Assembly (NCBI RefSeq): GCF_000341895.1
Contig: NC_020409.1
Location: 3,302,411-3,334,410 of the forward strand
Direction of reading: 5' to 3'
DNA from: Pseudodesulfovibrio piezophilus C1TLV30
Lineage (GTDB): Bacteria; Desulfobacterota; Desulfovibrionia; Desulfovibrionales; Desulfovibrionaceae
DNA length: 32,000 bases
Below the pieces are notes generated by a model. That model did no database searches and was not told where the DNA came from. It worked only from the letters and a program-made list of their open reading frames with translations. A program made the position numbers and the translations under genes. Of this stretch, positions 18,231 through 25,328 are shown one piece after another (within the stretch, counting starts at the first letter, position 1; every line of letters starts with the position of its first letter).

Positions 18231-18761
18231 CTAAAGTGTTCCGAAGAATCGGTGGCGAATGCCTGCTAGCCCGAGAAGGCCCGAGCCAAGTAAGAAGAGA
18301 GCGCCTGGGAGTGGGGTGGCGCGGGTAAAGGTGCCGGAATAAAAGTGTGTTCCGATATCCCCCGAGCCATATTTATAGTGGATGCTTCCGGTCAGGAGAA
18401 AGCTGAGAGCATTGTCGAATGTCACGAGTCCACTGGTAAGCCAATCGGCCGTATCCTGCGCAAAGACAACAGAGTCGGCAAAACCTGTGTTGACCCCAAA
18501 GTAGCTGATCCAATCCGAGGAACTGGTCCACACCCCTCCCCATGATGCGGTGTCTGGAGCGACATAGACATATAAGTCGGTTCCAGAGAGAGAGTGATGC
18601 GAGATATCATCTCCTATCTCGATAGTCAGCTCCGTGGATGCGGCAGTCGAGAACAGGGTACCTGTATAGACCCCATACATCCCGGTGTTATCAACTGTGG
18701 CAAATGCCAGACTTGTGGAGAGCAGAATCGTAGAAAAACATACCAGCATTACTCTGAACAT
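18231..18761 (-). CDS. Secreted protein with a PEP-CTERM-like (VPLPA-type) C-terminal sorting signal
   Basis: ATG at 18761 preceded by AAAGGAGGTGAT. Signal peptide MFRVMLVCFSTILLSTSLAFA. The C-terminus TPLPGALFLLGSGLLGLAGIRHRF has a Pro motif, a Gly/Leu-rich helix and a basic patch. The track ORF extends upstream to 18938, but that stretch contains the promoter. Confidence 0.75.
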   Translation of the reverse strand: MFRVMLVCFSTILLSTSLAFATVDNTGMYGVYTGTLFSTAASTELTIEIGDDISHHSLSGTDLYVYVAPDTASWGGVWTSSSDWISYFGVNTGFADSVVFAQDTADWLTSGLVTFDNALSFLLTGSIHYKYGSGDIGTHFYSGTFTRATPLPGALFLLGSGLLGLAGIRHRFFGTL

Positions 18762-18791
18762 TGTAATCACCTCCTTTATTGTTTCACCTGA

Positions 18792-18807
18792 AGCAAAGCG
18801 CATACCA
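18792..18807 (-). promoter_or_regulatory. Sigma-54 (-24/-12) promoter of the 18231..18761 gene
   Basis: The minus strand reads TGGTATGCGCTTTGCT, with GG-N10-GC spacing and a -12 TTGCT. The 3' end of the element is 31 nt from the ATG. Confidence 0.65.
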
Positions 18808-19408
18808 TTCATTTTTCCTCTTATATAACAGATTCTTGAGGGTTCAGATCCATTGCTGGAAATTGTTTTCCGGTTTTCCTGGTCGAGCATTGAATTTTGG
18901 GTATCATCACTCACAAAAAGGGACAGTAATGAAAACACAGGCGGTTCTTATCACCTGGGATGGTCGGCGATGAATCATACGAGCCGTTTACACAGGTGGA
19001 TCTGACCTATGTGAGATCGCATACGAGCAGTCAAAAAGCGTTTGGAATGGTCGAGGGAGAGCCGAAGCCCTATGTCCGAAGCCTCTTCGCCATGTGTGGT
19101 GATGTGGTTCCGATAAATCCGGACATTTGGGATTGCTCTGATCGTGGTGGGCGAATTGTCCTGGTGTGAACGTCTGTCGATATTCATGGGAGGCTGGTTT
19201 CAAGAGTACCTCTTCTTGTAATCAATTGAGGGTAAGCGAAAATCTTGTCAAAATGTTTTGCAGTCTGGCCTTGCTCCTGCCACAAAGGTGGATGGTGTGT
19301 GGGGATAAAATTGACAAGTTGGAAATGCTCCGGCTAAGAGCGGGGCGCGGCTGGAGTATCAGCCCATCCATTACAATAGAAAGAATGAGCCTGTCGGCAT
19401 ACCCGAGA

Positions 19409-22054
19409 ATGAAGTATCCTGAAATTATGAAGACCCTGTGCTGCCTCATCCTGACCATGAGCATGGTCTGCTTTGCGTGTGTTGCGTCTGCGGCCACAGG
19501 ACGCAAGCAGGTACTGTATATCAATTCCTATCAAAACGGGTATGCTTGGTCGGACAACATCCTGGCAGGGATTCGTGAGAGGCTGAGGGAGAGTGACTAC
19601 ACCATTGACCTTCAGGTGGAGTACATGGATGCCAAGAAACATCCGGCACGGTCCAACCGAGCCTTGTTGAAACGGCTTTTTGCCAATAAGTTCGCCGAAT
19701 CCAGATTTGATGCAATCATCTGTTCGGACAACGATGCCTTTCAGTTCATGCTCTCCTATCATGATGTTCTGTTTCCTGGCGTGCCGGTGGTTTTTTGCGG
19801 GGTGAATGACTGGCAGCCGGAAGTGTTGGAACGGCAGCAGGGCGTGACCGGTATTGTTGAACGATTGGGTATTCGTGAAACTCTGGAAACAGCATTGCGT
19901 CTTAACCCGTTGAAGCGGAAAGTCATCGTTGTTGGCGATCCCTCGCTGACATCGCGGGCAATTGCAGCCCAGATAAAGGCTGTTGTGCCGGATTTTATCG
20001 ACCGGCTGGAGTTTTCTTTCTGGGAGAATATCCCTCTCAATGAACTGCTTTCGCGCAGCCGAAATCTTCCCGACGACACGCTTCTCTTTTTCATCCCTGT
20101 CTATGTGGAATCCGAGGGCAAGTACCTTTCGGCAGGAGAGGTTGTTGAAGCCCTGTATGAGAATGCCAATGTCCCTATCTATGGCGCATGGAAGTTCCTT
20201 CTGGGGCACGGCATCGTCGGTGGGCATCTGCTGGACGGTGTGGGGCATGGCAAGGCTGCTGCAAATATGGTTCTGAAAATTCTGGACGGTCTGTCTCCTG
20301 CGGATATTCCCACCGCTTACGGTGCACCATCGGGGTCAGTGTTTGATTGGAAGGTCCTGGAGAAATTCGGCATGGACATAGCGGTACTTCCATTTGATGC
20401 GCAGTTCATTAATCGGCCGGAATTGACGTACCAGCTTGAAAAAAGGGTTGTCTGGACTGTGGGGGTTGCTCTGTGTGTCTTGACACTGTTTACGCTTTTG
20501 TTGGGAGCGAGTCGTAATCGAGCGCTCCGGGCCGAACGTGAATTGGCTTTGTCCAGGGCAATGTTGCGCTCAATCATTGATACCATCCCGCAACTGCTCT
20601 ACTGGAAGGATTCCGATAATCGATTCAAGGGCGTCAATAGGCGTTTTGCGGATTTTTTTGGGCTTTCCCGGTTGGAGGAAGCTGAAGGAAAACGGAATAA
20701 CGATGTCATTCATGAAAAACAGTTTTCAAGAAAGAGTGATGATCTGGATCGAATTGTCATGGATCGGGGACTGCCTGTCCTGCGGGAGATTCTGGAATAT
20801 GATGCTCCCGATCGTCCCGGAATGGTCTTTGAAATGAGCAAGATTCCCTTGCATGATGACAAGGGAAATATTTCAGGTGTCTTATCCACTGCGGAGGACA
20901 TCACGGCTCGTGTGGTTCTGGAACAGCAGCTTATTCAGTCTCAAAAGATGGAGGCTGTCGGGACTTTTGTTGGAGGTATTGCACATGATTTTAATAATTT
21001 GCTGACAACAATTATCAATTCGACTGAACTTGCATTGATGGAAATAGAAGCTGTTGATGCGGCAGAGGATGTGCTGCGCGCCAAGTTGGCCGCACAGCAG
21101 GGGAGTCAGCTTGTGAGCCAGCTTCTGACATTCTCAAGGCCATCGAACAGGGATGCCATGCGTATGGATGCGGCGGAAACTGTCACGAAAGCACTGAATC
21201 TTGTCGCTCCATTGCTGCCGGACTCTATTGTTTTGAAAAGAGATATTCCTCCCGACATATTGGAAGGTGTTGCTGATCCTTCTCAATTGCAGCAGGTCGT
21301 GATGAACCTCTGCACCAATGCTATCCACGCGTTGAAGGAGTCCGGTGGAGTCCTGATTGTTTCTGTGTCAGTGGATGAGGGCCGTCAGCGAAACGCGCAA
21401 TCCGGACTTGCGGGCAGACGGCTCCTTCGGCTCAAGGTCCGGGACAATGGACCAGGTATTTCTCCTAATGTCCGGGACAGAATTTTCGATCCGTTTTTTA
21501 CTACCAAGAAAAAGCATGAGGGAACCGGTTTAGGATTGGCTATTGTTCAGGGGATTGTGCACGGACATGGTGGGCACATTCGGCTTGTCAGTCATCCAGG
21601 GCTGACGCTTTTTGATATTGCAATTCCTTTCGAGAAGGGGGAATCAGCTCCGGTTATTTCGAATACGACGAACTTTGGAGGCGAAGAGAGAATTCTCTTT
21701 GTGGAAGATGATCCGGAGCAATTGGTATTGATTCCGCGTGCCCTGTCACTCCTCGGGTATAAGGTGACAGCGGTCCAGGGCGGGCGTGCCGCATTGGATG
21801 TTCTCATGGGAGGGACCCGATTCGACATGATTGTCACGGATTTTGATATGCCGGGGTTCGACGGTGTGGAGTTGGCCAGAACCGTGCGGCAACTTTTTCC
21901 TGGTATTCCCGTGATTCTTGTTTCAGGCGGGCAGGATGCAGTGGCTGCGGCTGATGGAGATCCAGGGATCATCGATGTTTTGATGAAACCGTACACCGGA
22001 AGTGCTTTGGCAGAGCGCATGAGACGTCTCTTTGATGTCGACAGCAATGCTTGA
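19409..22054 (+). CDS. Hybrid sensor histidine kinase (periplasmic ABC-substrate-binding-like domain, TM, PAS, HisKA, HATPase_c, REC)
   Basis: Signal/[39 protein letters not shown] is a periplasmic-binding-like motif. [41 protein letters not shown]-box [11 protein letters not shown]. Also [16 protein letters not shown] and [22 protein letters not shown]...[11 protein letters not shown]...MKP. Start is 19409 or 19427; the track start at 19166 is GTG and probably read-through. Confidence 0.85.
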
Positions 22055-22079
22055 GTTGATTGTGAAGGAACAGAGAGAC

Positions 22080-23492
22080 ATGGCAACAGTACTGATACTT
22101 GATGATGATCTGCGTTTGAACCAAACCATGGTCCGCATCATGGGCCGGATGGGACTTGAAGCCGATTCCGCTGCGACCATTGCGGAGGCTCGGGAGCTTA
22201 TGCAAGGCAGGGCGTATAAACTCGTCTTTTTGGATGTCCGGCTCCCTGATGGTAATGGGTTGGATATTTTACCGGAAATTCTGGACACGCCATCCCGGCC
22301 AGAGGTTGTCATTCTGACAGGAAAGGGAGACCCGGATGGTGCGGAACTGGCTATCCACGCCGGAGCCTGGGACTACCTTCTTAAACCGTCTTCCGTGAAG
22401 CAAACCATGCTTTGTGCCGAGAGGGCGCTCAAATATCACAAGCAGAAACTTGTTGTCGAACCTGCGTCCAAAATCGACCTTGGCAGCCTGGTGGGTGTCA
22501 GTCCCAAGATGGAAGCCTGCTATGAGCAGATAGCACTTGCTGCGCGGTCGGATTCCAATGTTTTGATTACTGGAGAAACCGGGACTGGCAAGGAACTCTT
22601 CGCACAAACGATTCACAAGAACTGTTCCCGAAGAGAATTCGAGTTTGTTCCGGTGGACTGTGCGTCTCTCAACAAAGAATTGATTGAGAGTGTGCTTTTC
22701 GGTCATAAGCGCGGCGCATTCACCGGAGCGGAGCGGGACCGAGTCGGACTGGTCAAGGTTGCCGATCGGGGCACCTTGTTTCTGGATGAAGTCGGGGACA
22801 TGAATCTTGATATTCAGAAGACCTTTCTCAGAGTCCTTCAGGAGCGAGCATTTCGCCCTGTCGGGGATACAAAGGAAGTTTCGAGTAATTTCCGCTTGAT
22901 GGCTGCCACAAATCGAGATCTTGATGCTGATATTGATCAGGAAATGTTTCGCCAGGATCTTCTGTACCGTCTCAAGACCATTCATATCAAGTTGCCTCCT
23001 TTGCGAGAGCGTGACGGAGATATCAAGTTGCTGGCCTTGTTTCGGGTCAACCAGCTTGCTCGGCAGTATGATCGGGAAATGACCCTGGCCCCGGAATCTT
23101 TCGATGTCCTGAGCGCCTATGCCTGGCCCGGCAATGTGCGTGAATTATTTGCAGTCATTGAAACCGCATTTCTTCATGCAGATGGTGCGGCGCAGATTAT
23201 TCCCCGCCATTTACCCTCTCAATTGCGTGTTGCCGCCATGAGGGCACAGGTTGCTCGTGTTGACGGCTCTTCTGTCGTTTCAGAACGAGAGAGCGGTCCG
23301 GATTCTCTTGGTATGGAAGCTGTCAAGCAGGGAGTCTCGTTGAAAGGGTTCAAGGGAGACATGGAAAAACATTATCTTGAAGAACTCAGGACTGTTACAG
23401 GAGGTGATATTAAGCGTATGATCGAAATCTCCGGATGTTCACAATCACATCTCTATTCCTTGCTGAAAAAAGCTGGCCTTTCTCTCAAATAA
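22080..23492 (+). CDS. Sigma-54-dependent response regulator (REC + AAA+ enhancer-binding domain + Fis-type HTH), NtrC family
   Basis: REC VLILDDD...FLDVRLPDGNG...LKP. Walker A GETGTGKE, GAFTGA loop and Walker B LFLDEVGDM. C-terminal HTH ISGCSQSHLYSLLKKAGL. ATG at 22080. Confidence 0.9.
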   Translation: MATVLILDDDLRLNQTMVRIMGRMGLEADSAATIAEARELMQGRAYKLVFLDVRLPDGNGLDILPEILDTPSRPEVVILTGKGDPDGAELAIHAGAWDYLLKPSSVKQTMLCAERALKYHKQKLVVEPASKIDLGSLVGVSPKMEACYEQIALAARSDSNVLITGETGTGKELFAQTIHKNCSRREFEFVPVDCASLNKELIESVLFGHKRGAFTGAERDRVGLVKVADRGTLFLDEVGDMNLDIQKTFLRVLQERAFRPVGDTKEVSSNFRLMAATNRDLDADIDQEMFRQDLLYRLKTIHIKLPPLRERDGDIKLLALFRVNQLARQYDREMTLAPESFDVLSAYAWPGNVRELFAVIETAFLHADGAAQIIPRHLPSQLRVAAMRAQVARVDGSSVVSERESGPDSLGMEAVKQGVSLKGFKGDMEKHYLEELRTVTGGDIKRMIEISGCSQSHLYSLLKKAGLSLK

Positions 23493-23743
23493 GTTTCTGA
23501 TTGGAATTTCTAAAAAAAAGAAAATTTTTTTATTTTGTTATTGCAGTGTGTTATAGTAGTTCTGTAAGGGCTTTTTTGAAAGACGGATACTAAATATAAC
23601 TATATTTGTGGACTTTATCGTTTATATTCAGTGGGATATCGTTGTGCTACGCTTGATTCTTTTTTTTAGGAAAAAAAAGGCAGGTCTGAAATAGCAGACG
23701 AATTGTTTAATTAATAAACCGCTGTAATAATAAAGAATAATCT

Positions 23744-23759
23744 TGGCACAACTCTTGTT
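23744..23759 (+). promoter_or_regulatory. Sigma-54-like promoter in front of a non-coding region
   Basis: TGGCACAACTCTTGTT has a perfect -24 TGGCAC and correct spacing, but the -12 is TTGT rather than TTGC. A sigma-70-like alternative, TTGTTT-N17-(TGt)AATAAT at 23703-23731, lies just upstream. Confidence 0.45.
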
Positions 23760-23769
23760 ATGATGAGGT

Positions 23770-23948
23770 TGACCTCAGTCACACCAGGGGTTGTGAAGTC
23801 CGCAAGCTTCATAACCGCAAGGTACCGGGTGGCGCTCTGCGCATCACCTCCTTGTCGTGGAGCGCCACCTTGCTTATGGCATAATAACGCCACAAAAAAA
23901 GACCTCAACTCCTGTATATGCAGGAGTTGAGGTCTTTTTTTGTGGCGT
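23770..23948 (+). ncRNA. Candidate ~175-nt small RNA with an anti-Shine-Dalgarno loop
   Basis: Bounded by the promoter motifs above and a perfect intrinsic terminator. A 10-bp stem, GGTGGCGCTC / GAGCGCCACC (23828-23837 / 23860-23869), has a 22-nt loop containing ATCACCTCCTT (23843-23853). There is no RBS-preceded ORF and no downstream + strand gene. The 5' end is not determined. Confidence 0.4.
23887..23948. terminator. Bidirectional intrinsic terminator (28-bp perfect palindrome with internal A7 and T7 runs)
   Basis: ACGCCACAAAAAAAGACCTCAACTCCTG-tatatg-CAGGAGTTGAGGTCTTTTTTTGTGGCGT. It serves the convergent 24009..24632 gene and the + strand candidate sRNA. Confidence 0.85.
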
Positions 23949-24008
23949 TTGGGCGCTCATTCTCAAGAGCGTTTCTTTACCATGACTCTCTCACATACCA
24001 TCTCTATC

Positions 24009-24632
24009 TCAGGATAAACGGCGTTTGATGCCGATTAGCCCAAGGAGTCCTGTGCCGAGGAGGAGAGCCGCACCCGGGATCGGAGTGGGCGAAACAGAAA
24101 CATTGCTGAAAATACTGGTGCTGATACCATCACCGCCAGCCGAGCTGACATGGTCATCATCATTGATGAAGACAAGGTAATCAAATGCATCGCCTATATT
24201 GAGAAAGTCCGTCAGGTTAATGGTATACGTCGTGAAACCGCTGCCTTCCGTATACAAGGTGGAATAGATGAATTCAGGCCAGTTATTGCCCTGTGTGCCG
24301 CCTATCTTGACAGCGTTTTTGGCATCGAGTGCATAATCGAATGACCTATCGGTATCAAAGCCAATGGCTGCTATTTCAGGGATGGAATCGCTTTTGTAGG
24401 TAAATGTCAGGACGCTGTCAGCTTTGACTGTATAAGTGGAATCAAAAGCATAGGCAGTCCAAATATTATTGGACAAGGTCAGTGTTGATCCACTGGCAGA
24501 TGCTGTGCCTGTGGTTGGTTGGCCGGAATATGACAGCGGATTGCTGAAGTCGATAAGGGCAGCGGTCGCAAAGCCGGGTGAGCCTAAGTGGCAGAGTACG
24601 GTACAGAAAAAAAGTATTAGAAAACGTTTCAT
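24009..24632 (-). CDS. Secreted protein with a PEP-CTERM-like (VPLPA-type) C-terminal sorting signal
   Basis: Signal peptide MKRFLILFFCTVLCHLGSPGFA. C-terminus TPIPGAALLLGTGLLGLIGIKRRLS. GGAG RBS. Apart from the two termini, there is no obvious similarity to the 18231..18761 protein. Confidence 0.8.
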   Translation of the reverse strand: MKRFLILFFCTVLCHLGSPGFATAALIDFSNPLSYSGQPTTGTASASGSTLTLSNNIWTAYAFDSTYTVKADSVLTFTYKSDSIPEIAAIGFDTDRSFDYALDAKNAVKIGGTQGNNWPEFIYSTLYTEGSGFTTYTINLTDFLNIGDAFDYLVFINDDDHVSSAGGDGISTSIFSNVSVSPTPIPGAALLLGTGLLGLIGIKRRLS

Positions 24633-24662
24633 GTGTGCTCCAGTGTGTTTTTTCTTCCTTTG

Positions 24663-24678
24663 AGCAAGACCTGGACCA
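24663..24678 (-). promoter_or_regulatory. Sigma-54 (-24/-12) promoter of the 24009..24632 gene
   Basis: The minus strand reads TGGTCCAGGTCTTGCT, with GG-N10-GC spacing and a -12 TTGCT. Its 3' end is 31 nt from the ATG, the same geometry as at 18792-18807. Confidence 0.6.
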
Positions 24679-25049
24679 TGTTGTTTATCTATCCGTTTTT
24701 AAATGGTAATTTGAGAAAAGAAGTATGCGATCAGCGCTTTTTATTCATCTTTCCGAAATAGTCGGACAGACCTTTTTTGTCAGATTAGTCGTTTCTTGCC
24801 GCAAGAGTGGGGTGAGCCTTTTCGATCTTTTGGGTGTTGTTCAAAGGAAAGAGACGATATTCCGAGGTTGAATATCTTTTTTCTGTGAAAAAAACAGGGT
24901 GGTTGGGCTGTTTGACTTTTTTCGAGTCTGTCCTGACTGAAGTTACATCCGGGAGAAGCAGACTTGTGAGGAAGGAAAAAACTTTTCCCACGAATGAAGC
25001 GAATGCCAATTTTGAGCGAAGCGTGAATCGAGGCAGTGTCTTTTTGCGT

Positions 25050-25083
25050 ATGTGCCCCTGGTCCGTGAGGACCAGGGGCACAT
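25050..25083. other. 15-bp perfect hairpin with a GTGA (GNRA-type) tetraloop in a non-coding region
   Basis: ATGTGCCCCTGGTCC-gtga-GGACCAGGGGCACAT. No flanking T-run, so it is not a classic terminator. Confidence 0.6.
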
Positions 25084-25212
25084 CTCCGGGGGGTCAGTAC
25101 CCTTTCGGGATACAGGAGTTTGAGGGGGGGTGAAACCCTCAAGGGACGTATCTGTTCTGGTCCGTAGCACGTCAGACCAAAACAAGAGTTGTTCAGTGAC
25201 GAATAGTCACAT

Positions 25213-25241
25213 GCACACCGGAAAATCCGGTGGCTTTTTTT
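25213..25241 (+). terminator. Rho-independent terminator oriented for the + strand
   Basis: CACCGG-aaaat-CCGGTG, then GC and seven T residues. The T-run is on the + strand side only. rnfB, on the minus strand, ends 88 nt to the right. Confidence 0.6.
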
Positions 25242-25328
25242 ATATCAGTTCAACGTGTCAACATGGCGAACATGTGTTTTCGAGTCGATGACAGAGCTTC
25301 GTCTAAAACCGGAACCGTTGTGTTGACA

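Follow-up and report, generated by a model that had tools for sequence, protein, structure and literature searches.

A candidate sigma-54 regulon of two secreted proteins with Glu-less PEP-CTERM-type tails around a kinase/activator pair in Pseudodesulfovibrio piezophilus

In Pseudodesulfovibrio piezophilus, a deep-sea sulfate reducer, a hybrid histidine kinase and an NtrC-type enhancer-binding protein (EBP) are encoded between two genes for secreted proteins, designated here as genes A and B, each of which has a sorting-type C-terminal tail and a putative sigma-54 promoter. This arrangement raises the question of whether A and B form a sigma-54 regulon and, if so, whether the EBP encoded between them is its activator. 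The analysis covered a 32-kb stretch of the genome (the window), and the coordinates are positions within it unless a contig is named. The genes, coordinates, signal peptides, tails and promoters listed in a preliminary description of this locus, as well as the GAFTGA motif of the EBP, were all found where that description had placed them. Gene anatomy, promoters, palindromes with their spacing, and domain content could be read directly from the nucleotide sequence. We favor the reading that A and B are a sigma-54/EBP regulon with the local EBP as the likeliest activator, and assign to it a probability of about 0.5. The genes and the parts of the two secreted proteins are as follows.

18231-18761, minus strand: gene A, secreted-protein gene, 176 amino acids (aa), single-gene unit
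18699-18761, minus strand: gene A signal peptide, MFRVMLVCFSTILLSTSLAFA/T, ending AFA/T
18234-18317, minus strand: gene A sorting-type tail, TPLPGALFLLGSGLLGLAGIRHRFFGTL
7 nt before the gene A ATG, minus strand: strong Shine-Dalgarno sequence, AAGGAGGTGA
19409-22054, plus strand: hybrid histidine kinase, 881 aa, between genes A and B
22080-23492, plus strand: NtrC-type EBP response regulator, 470 aa, between the kinase and gene B
24009-24632, minus strand: gene B, secreted-protein gene, 207 aa, single-gene unit
24567-24632, minus strand: gene B signal peptide, ...GSPGFA/T, ending GFA/T
24012-24086, minus strand: gene B sorting-type tail, TPIPGAALLLGTGLLGLIGIKRRLS

Promoters and upstream palindromes of genes A and B

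Each of the two genes is preceded by a -24/-12 element, and palindromes that are candidate enhancers, or upstream activator sequences (UAS), lie further upstream.

18792-18807 (read 18807-18792), minus strand: gene A promoter TGGTATGCGCTTTGCT, GG-N10-GC, last base 31 nt from the A of ATG
24663-24678 (read 24678-24663), minus strand: gene B promoter TGGTCCAGGTCTTGCT, GG-N10-GC, last base 31 nt from the A of ATG
18869-18883: degenerate palindrome copy ACCAGGAAAACCGGA (minus strand), two mismatches, centre 69 nt upstream of the gene A -24 TGG
19108-19125 (core 19109-19123), minus strand: candidate UAS TGTCCGGATTTATCGGAA upstream of gene A, perfect TCCGR-N5-YCGGA palindrome
19118-19132: palindrome copy with one mismatch, overlapping the perfect site, centre 318 nt from the gene A -24
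24751-24768 (core 24752-24766), minus strand: candidate UAS TGTCCGACTATTTCGGAA, perfect palindrome, centre 81 nt upstream of the gene B -24 TGG

When compared with the sigma-54 consensus TGGCAC-N5-TTGCW (GG and GC 10 nt apart, 12 consensus positions), the promoter of gene A matched at 10 positions and that of gene B at 9. The number of TGG-N8-TTGCT sites in the window was at chance level (2 against 1.23 expected), but their placement was above chance, both being on the correct strand and at an equal offset before the two tail-bearing open reading frames (ORFs). Furthermore, a homologue of B on contig L098 (55% identical, also a single-gene unit) is preceded by the canonical TGGCACGCGGGTTGCT (TGGCAC-N5-TTGCT), and a tandem pair of tail-bearing genes on contig L003 is preceded by TGGCAC-N5-TTCCA. 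The gene A promoter resembles the promoters predicted for the DVUA0057 regulon of Desulfovibrio vulgaris (GGTATGC/GGAATGC...TTGCT; PMC4641369 supplement 6). The identical geometry that had been claimed for the two promoters is borne out by their common 31-nt distance from ATG, and the site of the L098 homologue is canonical. In the automatic gene calls of JGI, two samples of which hold contigs near-identical to the window, gene A (18231-18938) starts 43 codons too early (219 aa), and its sigma-54 promoter is consequently hidden inside the called ORF; the kinase (19166-22054) likewise starts 39 codons too early (920 aa).

Comparison of the window regions with each other (k-mers, inverted repeats) gave chance-level matches only, and the palindrome emerged once homologous loci were added to the comparison. 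TCCGR-N5-YCGGA occurs exactly twice in the 32 kb against 0.29 expected, and both occurrences fall in the 1.3 kb upstream of the two promoters, where they flank the kinase/EBP operon. An 18-nt asymmetric form, TGTCCGR-N5-YCGGAA, is perfect at those two places only, both copies sharing the minus strand with genes A and B. Measured from its centre, the palindrome lies 81 nt from the -24 element in gene B, 80 nt in the L098 homologue (a perfect site), and 81 nt in the L003 pair (one mismatch). A simple calculation of the chance that a site with no more than one mismatch would fall by accident at a given position, give or take 1 nt, yields about 3e-4, a figure that is indicative only because the pattern was partly defined on these sites. 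Such a fixed spacing in three organisms is what would be expected of a real activator site. In the case of gene A, 309 nt separate the centre of the 19108-19125 palindrome from the -24 downstream of it, and the same centre precedes the kinase ATG by about 290 nt. The proximal copy at 18869-18883 agrees with the L098 site in 14 of 16 positions, a score that none of 40 shuffles attained. Gene A and the kinase are separated by a divergent region (18762-19408) of 647 bp, as had been stated, and the suggestion that it could hold enhancer sites agrees with the presence of the shared palindrome, with conserved spacing, in large intergenic regions.

In Desulfovibrionales, the sites of DVUA0057 (PrsR) are listed as TGTCGGA-N5-YYKACA (PMC4641369 supplement 4). 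No site of this type with up to two mismatches was found at a plausible place upstream of the cargo promoters. The only intergenic matches within this limit were at 19392-19408, which abuts the kinase ATG and lies about 590 nt upstream of the gene A promoter, and at 25256-25272, about 580 nt upstream of the gene B promoter. No consensus for the integration host factor (IHF) was present between the palindromes and the promoters.

Two further observations concern these motifs. A weak GG-N10-GC site, TGGCCTTGCTCCTGCC, is present at 19266-19281 on the plus strand, between the 19109-19123 palindrome (about 150 nt upstream of the site) and the kinase ATG (128 nt further on); its match to the consensus is poor, and it could serve the autoregulation of the kinase/EBP operon. 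In addition, the codons for GSGLLGL in the tails (TCC GGN CTN CTC GGA) mimic TCCGR-N5-YCGGA at 9885-9900 of L003 and 371-386 of contig L099, so that genome-wide scans for the enhancer motif would catch false positives in tail-coding sequence.

The -24/-12 matches could in principle be fortuitous, with A and B transcribed from sigma-70 promoters or by read-through, in the case of B from the upstream rnf operon. This would fit the chance-level count of the pattern, a weak sigma-70-like match that overlaps the gene A leader (18787-18760), and the position of gene B downstream of rnf on the same strand. However, 696 bp with hairpins lie between the stop codon of the rnf operon and the gene B promoter, and chance would have to account for the equal 31-nt offset before the only two tail-bearing ORFs, the canonical promoter before the L098 homologue, and the palindrome at a fixed 80-81 nt in three organisms. 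We consider such a coincidence highly improbable and infer that genes A and B very probably depend on sigma-54 in vivo.

Sorting-type tails and the exosortase question

The tails of A and B, the only ORFs in the window with this pattern, have the consensus (S/A)(P/A)TP(L/I)PGA followed by a Gly/Leu-rich helix and then a basic cluster, and thus contain all three parts of a PEP-CTERM-type C-terminal domain (P-x-P motif, hydrophobic helix, basic cluster). When they were aligned with the tails (TPEP...) of three NCBI-annotated PEP-CTERM proteins from plasmid pDV1 of D. vulgaris Hildenborough, no gap was needed inside the sorting domain. T-P-x-P, one Leu, one Gly and a Gly-Leu were invariant, and the sole systematic difference from D. 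vulgaris was Leu or Ile at the position where TPEP has Glu. The N-terminal signal peptides, read from the sequence, have hydrophobic cores. Outside signal peptide and tail the two proteins are unrelated (BLASTP E 0.22), in agreement with the earlier statement that they share only these two parts.

The body of the gene A product is an orphan with no homologue except itself among 5.8 billion proteins, and its structure model was unusable (predicted local distance difference test, pLDDT, 41). For the gene B product, UniRef has a P. piezophilus protein with 100% identity under the name PEP-CTERM sorting domain-containing, and just four other homologues were found among the same 5.8 billion proteins. 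The model of the gene B product, of moderate confidence (pLDDT 64; predicted template modelling score, pTM, 0.60), has a beta-sandwich body, and the best fold matches were the carbohydrate-binding modules CBM29, CBM16, CBM11 and CBM86 (E ~1e-3, TM ~0.5 on the target). These matches weakly suggest that the gene B product, which in the model looks like a carbohydrate-binding beta-sandwich, would fit a matrix or surface role.

Two findings speak against placing the tails in an established class. The near-invariant Pro-Glu-Pro is replaced, since A, B and all homologues have TPLP or TPIP for TPEP, and every score with the PEP-CTERM, VPLPA and VPDSG models was under the cut-off. PF07589 gave 18.8 bits for A and 10.9 bits for B, both below the gathering threshold (GA) of 20.7. 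TIGR03370 (VPLPA-CTERM; cut-off 25.35 bits) gave 15.9 for A, 10.4 for B, 20.1 for homologue P0002, 17.7 for homologue P0003, and 17.3 for the 232-aa protein of L003. The EDSAP-1 model reached 22.8 bits on gene A against a cut-off of 100, and several full-length PEP-CTERM families reached 11-23 bits against cut-offs of 65-125. The curated models that touch A, B or their homologues match at the C-terminal tail. As far as the sequence goes, the tails are built like a PEP-CTERM signal yet fail formal membership on the Glu and on the model cut-offs, and in all likelihood they are PEP-CTERM-type tails of a Glu-less (VPLPA-like) form. Accordingly, of the earlier designation as a VPLPA-like sorting signal, the Glu-less PEP-CTERM-type tail stands, whereas the class models TIGR02595 and TIGR03370 remained under cut-off.

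The TP(L/I)PGA variant was found solely in this organism and on three metagenomic contigs, on at least four unrelated bodies. In two other organisms (L003, 9232-10609; L099, 65-1063), TP(L/I)PGA genes with unrelated bodies stand as tandem pairs, and the L003 pair is tail-to-tail with another hybrid kinase, which has a periplasmic SBP_bac_3 sensor and shares with the window kinase 26% identity, confined to the core.

The preliminary description had reported no exosortase and no extracellular polysaccharide (EPS) genes in the window, and indeed none was found within the 32 kb; PrsT and EpsI were not found there either. A search seeded with the pDV1 exosortase for XrtA returned congeners but no P. 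piezophilus protein among the best 120 of 2,158 matches, which is not the same as absence from the genome. When an alignment of Pseudodesulfovibrio XrtA was searched against metagenomes, 80 loci were obtained, none from samples holding this organism, which the scan did not reach, and no report on a P. piezophilus exosortase was found in the literature. Clusters of XrtA-EpsI-PrsK-PrsR are present in several Pseudodesulfovibrio species. JGI contig L016, which carries such a cluster and has a tetranucleotide correlation (r) of 0.95 with the window, was rejected as belonging to another species; its XrtA falls in a cluster without an NCBI member. That the searches made assigned no exosortase to the P. 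piezophilus genome is a further point against the favored reading.

The tails might instead do no more than anchor the proteins in the membrane by their C termini, or be left over from an exosortase system that has since been lost, as in Chlorobium tepidum, and A and B would then be periplasmic proteins tethered to the inner membrane. The scores under cut-off and the missing Glu would be explained in this way, as would the best 120 XrtA homologues, among which several congeners but not P. piezophilus appear. In addition, TP(L/I)PGA was not seen beside any of the 80 XrtA loci fetched, and a genome with PEP-CTERM proteins and without EpsH has been described (Haft 2006, PMC1569441). On the other hand, the tail is kept in detail on unrelated bodies in at least three organisms, which argues for a dedicated partner, and the limit of the top-120 list given above applies here as well. 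Glu-less variants with an exosortase of their own do exist, the VPLPA-CTERM model TIGR03370 being paired with a dedicated exosortase. We regard anchors or relics as unlikely.

The kinase/EBP pair and the choice of activator

The domains of the two regulatory proteins, both encoded on the plus strand, are arranged as follows.

Kinase, sensor part: N-terminal signal or transmembrane segment; ABC_sub_bind-like periplasmic domain, aa 49-322; second transmembrane segment, about aa 347-369
Kinase, signalling part: PAS, aa 385-502; HisKA, 518-579; HATPase_c, 623-742; receiver, 762-871
EBP: receiver, aa 4-108 (Asp in FLDVRLPD); sigma-54 AAA+, 137-303; lid, 309-388; Fis-type helix-turn-helix (HTH), about 23358-23483
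22713-22730: exact GAFTGA of the EBP, aa 212-217

The two genes are 25 nt apart, and an alternative EBP start at 22047 would overlap the kinase stop codon. The EBP (PF00072, 71 bits; PF00158, 215 bits) has the receiver Asp, the GAFTGA-containing AAA+ domain and the Fis-type HTH of the NtrC family. Pfam HTH_8 was not detected in it; its C terminus aligns by eye with the DNA-binding domains of D. vulgaris EBPs, the nearest of which is that of DVU3220 (helix SQSHLYSLLKK versus SRSHFYALLKK), a nitrogen-related regulator without a known motif. The PrsK model TIGR02916 scored 68.3 bits on the kinase against a cut-off of 300, in the catalytic core only, and the PrsR model TIGR02915 gave the EBP 295.1 bits, short of its cut-off of 502.6 and not above what the AtoC and NtrC models gave. 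The EBP is 31% identical to the pDV1 EBP beside EpsI. By these scores the pair is not PrsK/PrsR. The kinase was said to differ from PrsK in architecture, which is confirmed by its ABC_sub_bind-PAS-HisKA-HATPase-REC order and by the score of 68 versus 300 bits. Its sensor, however, is not unusual as had been thought: this type (PF04392) has 12,290 cluster representatives, 3,777 of them at E <= 1e-30, and is mostly N-terminal in long signalling proteins of 600-1,500 residues. The DNA-binding domain that carries the label DVU0110 in supplement 2 of PMC4641369 has the same sequence as the C terminus of the EpsI-adjacent pDV1 EBP (L015, 28687-30117), which is Haft's DVUA0057; the labels DVU0110 and DVUA0057 may have been swapped there.

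The EBP is assigned to the two promoters because of its adjacency, because the palindromes flank its operon, and because of the regulon pattern of D. vulgaris EBPs, most of which control one to four operons (PMC4641369), many of their listed targets bearing locus tags near the EBP's own (PMC4641369 Table 1). We put the chances that the local EBP activates A and B at about even. The earlier proposal that it does so can be retained as regards adjacency and the palindromes on both sides of the operon, whereas the regulatory link itself is drawn from proximity.

Several findings weigh against this assignment. The kinase has no histidine phosphotransfer (HPt) domain, and direct transfer to the EBP is assumed. 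Its orthologue P0127 in a relative (contig L100; 64% identical, full length) keeps the left-hand neighbours (an Fe-S protein, a 153-aa protein, an AraC regulator and a tRNA-binding protein). The place taken by gene A in the window is filled there by a PAS kinase, and gene A is not adjacent; since the orthologue lies in kept synteny without gene A, kinase and cargo are not an inherited unit. The L003 locus, with palindrome and cargo, has no EBP within 17 kb, and the L098 locus of the B homologue, with its palindrome, has no adjacent EBP. Because the palindrome precedes homologues at both loci, the protein that binds it need not be a neighbouring EBP. The sites scored with the palindrome pattern also contributed to its definition, and gene A has its perfect site as far as 309 nt from the promoter and two mismatches in the proximal one. 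The idea of a compact island, or module, does not hold in the sense of a conserved unit.

Between the EBP gene and gene B lie two further features that bear on the choice of activator.

23744-23955, plus strand: candidate sigma-54-dependent small RNA (sRNA), promoter-like TGGCACAACTCTTGTT at 23744-23759, followed by about 185 nt with three hairpins
23886-23949: bidirectional intrinsic terminator, perfect 32-bp hairpin preceded by an A-run and followed by a T-run, ending gene B (minus strand) and the candidate sRNA (plus strand)

In the middle hairpin, the loop includes AUCACCUCCUU, a complement of strong Shine-Dalgarno sequences, for example that of gene A (AAGGAGGTGAT). The predicted fold has a minimum free energy of -107 kcal/mol (z -12), driven largely by the terminator. 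In D. vulgaris, a non-coding RNA is encoded directly downstream of its own EBP response-regulator gene in the cases of DVU0679 (Dv_sRNA2) and DVU0653, and the predicted sigma-54 promoter of DVU0943 has TTGT at -12 (PMC4641369). The window resembles DVU0679 and DVU0653 in the succession of EBP gene, sigma-54-type promoter and short, structured, terminator-ended non-coding stretch; it differs in the GT at -12 and in a DNA-binding domain nearer to DVU3220. Rfam returned no family for the candidate, only spurious microRNA matches on the terminator hairpin. No palindrome precedes its promoter, and any motif common to its upstream region and those of A and B was at chance level. Duplex predictions against initiation regions were discarded, as they did not single out A or B and their energies looked unreliable.

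The activator of A and B may also be encoded elsewhere, for example as a PrsR paralogue dedicated to TP(L/I)PGA proteins; the position of the local pair would then be incidental, and the pair would have other targets, for example the candidate sRNA or its own operon. This would agree with the homologous loci that have the same palindrome and spacing without an adjacent EBP, with the L100 orthologue in the same synteny without gene A, and with DVU0679 and DVU0653, whose listed targets are the non-coding RNAs directly downstream of their own genes. It would also agree with the TGGCAC-N5-TTGTT site, hairpins and terminator just downstream of the EBP gene, with the lack of a palindrome copy before that site, and with a DNA-binding domain nearest to that of the nitrogen-related regulator DVU3220. 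On the other side, both exact palindromes in the 32 kb flank the kinase/EBP operon, the -12 of the sRNA-like site is GT and not GC, and L003 and L098 are short contigs whose organisms may carry an orthologous EBP elsewhere. An outside activator is possible, in our view, but less probable than the local EBP.

For the favored reading, in which the local EBP is the activator, we infer the following course of events with regard to the protein bound at the palindrome, the signal sensed and the processing of the products. A and B would both belong to a small regulon, confined to this lineage, that encodes secreted proteins with Glu-less tails. Their transcription would need an NtrC-family activator on the TGTCCGR-N5-YCGGAA palindrome, about 81 nt upstream of the -24 in B and the homologues and present in gene A as a degenerate proximal and a perfect distal copy. 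Once its periplasmic solute-binding-type domain has detected a ligand, the co-transcribed hybrid kinase would phosphorylate the EBP encoded between A and B. After Sec export, the C-terminal helix would hold the products, and, if a matching exosortase is present in the genome, cleavage at TP(L/I)P would allow their passage to the cell surface or matrix. A wider version, in which the locus is a self-contained module independent of PrsK/PrsR, with kinase and EBP, a new enhancer, Glu-less cargo, an undescribed exosortase subtype (or none), and an anti-Shine-Dalgarno-type sRNA switched on at the same time, appears to us more doubtful than any of the alternatives above except a chance origin of the promoters.

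The remaining genes of the window encode pst transport, an OmpR-type two-component system, citrate synthase, an Fe-S oxidoreductase, an AraC regulator and the rnf operon. Base composition gave no hint that gene A or gene B is a recent import. On the minus strand, 23672-23908 also allows an opposite reading, with a sigma-70-like TTGAGG-16-TATTAT inside the big terminator and a second terminator, GTCTGCTATTTCAGAC plus T8, at 23699-23672, so that two tandem terminators stand about 190 nt apart (fold z -3.4). A 15-nt inverted repeat flanking gene B (23748-23762/25178-25192) was dismissed as chance, about 1.6 such pairs being expected in 7.4 kb. Three hairpins lie in the region before gene B (24780-25328): a perfect one of 15 bp (25050-25083), a G/C hairpin (about 25120-25145) and, adjoining the rnf stop codon, a terminator-like one on the plus strand with a T-run (25216-25241). 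The region gave neither a convincing ORF nor an Rfam match.

Comparison with known systems

In 2006, Haft reported that more than 65% of proteobacterial PEP-CTERM genes are single-gene units with more than 200 nt of non-coding sequence and a sigma-54 motif upstream, and that a second motif, attributed to PrsR, lies about 63 nt further upstream (PMC1569441). The window follows this layout with its single-gene units, 647 and 696 bp of upstream sequence, -24/-12 sites and palindromes. The module had been called possibly new, but single-gene units behind large intergenic regions with a sigma-54 promoter and an activator site are the published norm (PMC1569441, PMC3333781, PMC4641369, PMC9850573).

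The closest parallel is the DVUA0057/PrsR-type system. Common to both are the signal peptide, the P-x-P motif, the hydrophobic helix and the basic cluster, single genes behind large non-coding DNA (PMC1569441, PMC3333781, PMC4641369), an activator site about 60-80 nt before the -24/-12 motif, and an NtrC-type EBP with a kinase; the left half-site TGTCCGR also resembles the DVUA0057 half-site TGTCGGA. In contrast, the window has Leu or Ile for Glu, its tails score below the cut-offs of the models, as do its EBP (295 versus 502.6 bits) and kinase (68 versus 300 bits), and its upstream site is TGTCCGR-N5-YCGGAA, not TGTCGGA-N5-TTTACA. Unlike in PEP-CTERM/PrsK-PrsR-PrsT systems, the regulator pair adjoins the cargo and not an EPS/exosortase cluster.

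For pepA of Aquincola tertiaricarbonis and Zoogloea resiniphila, experiments demonstrated an RpoN-dependent single PEP-CTERM cargo gene with a predicted enhancer upstream (PMC9850573), which is the mechanism proposed here. That system belongs to floc-forming betaproteobacteria, has the canonical PEP motif and is linked to prsK/prsR/prsT and a large EPS cluster. The bodies of the proteins are unrelated, and the floc_PepA model scored 11-16 bits on A and B, in A in the tail only.

With VPLPA-CTERM (TIGR03370), the tails share a Glu-less P-L-P motif, the helix and an Arg-rich end, and this was the best domain-type model for gene A, P0002 and P0003 and a close second for the 232-aa protein of L003. 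They differ in scores below 25.35 bits and in the motif TP(L/I)PGA, joined to a Gly/Leu-rich helix of the kind typical of PEP-CTERM tails in deltaproteobacteria.

If the favored reading is correct, the locus would represent a second regulatory route, in which both the kinase/EBP pair and the enhancer sequence differ from those of the known one, and would define a Glu-less tail variant in Desulfovibrionaceae. It would also provide a compact promoter-enhancer pair for the study of surface or matrix remodelling in a piezophilic sulfate reducer, given that one cargo looks like a carbohydrate-binding module. The general picture would be unchanged, as sigma-54/EBP control of PEP-CTERM cargo has been predicted since 2006 and RpoN dependence has been shown in another bacterium. 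Taken together, these comparisons suggest that the locus is a local variation on the known sigma-54/PEP-CTERM theme and not a new kind of system.

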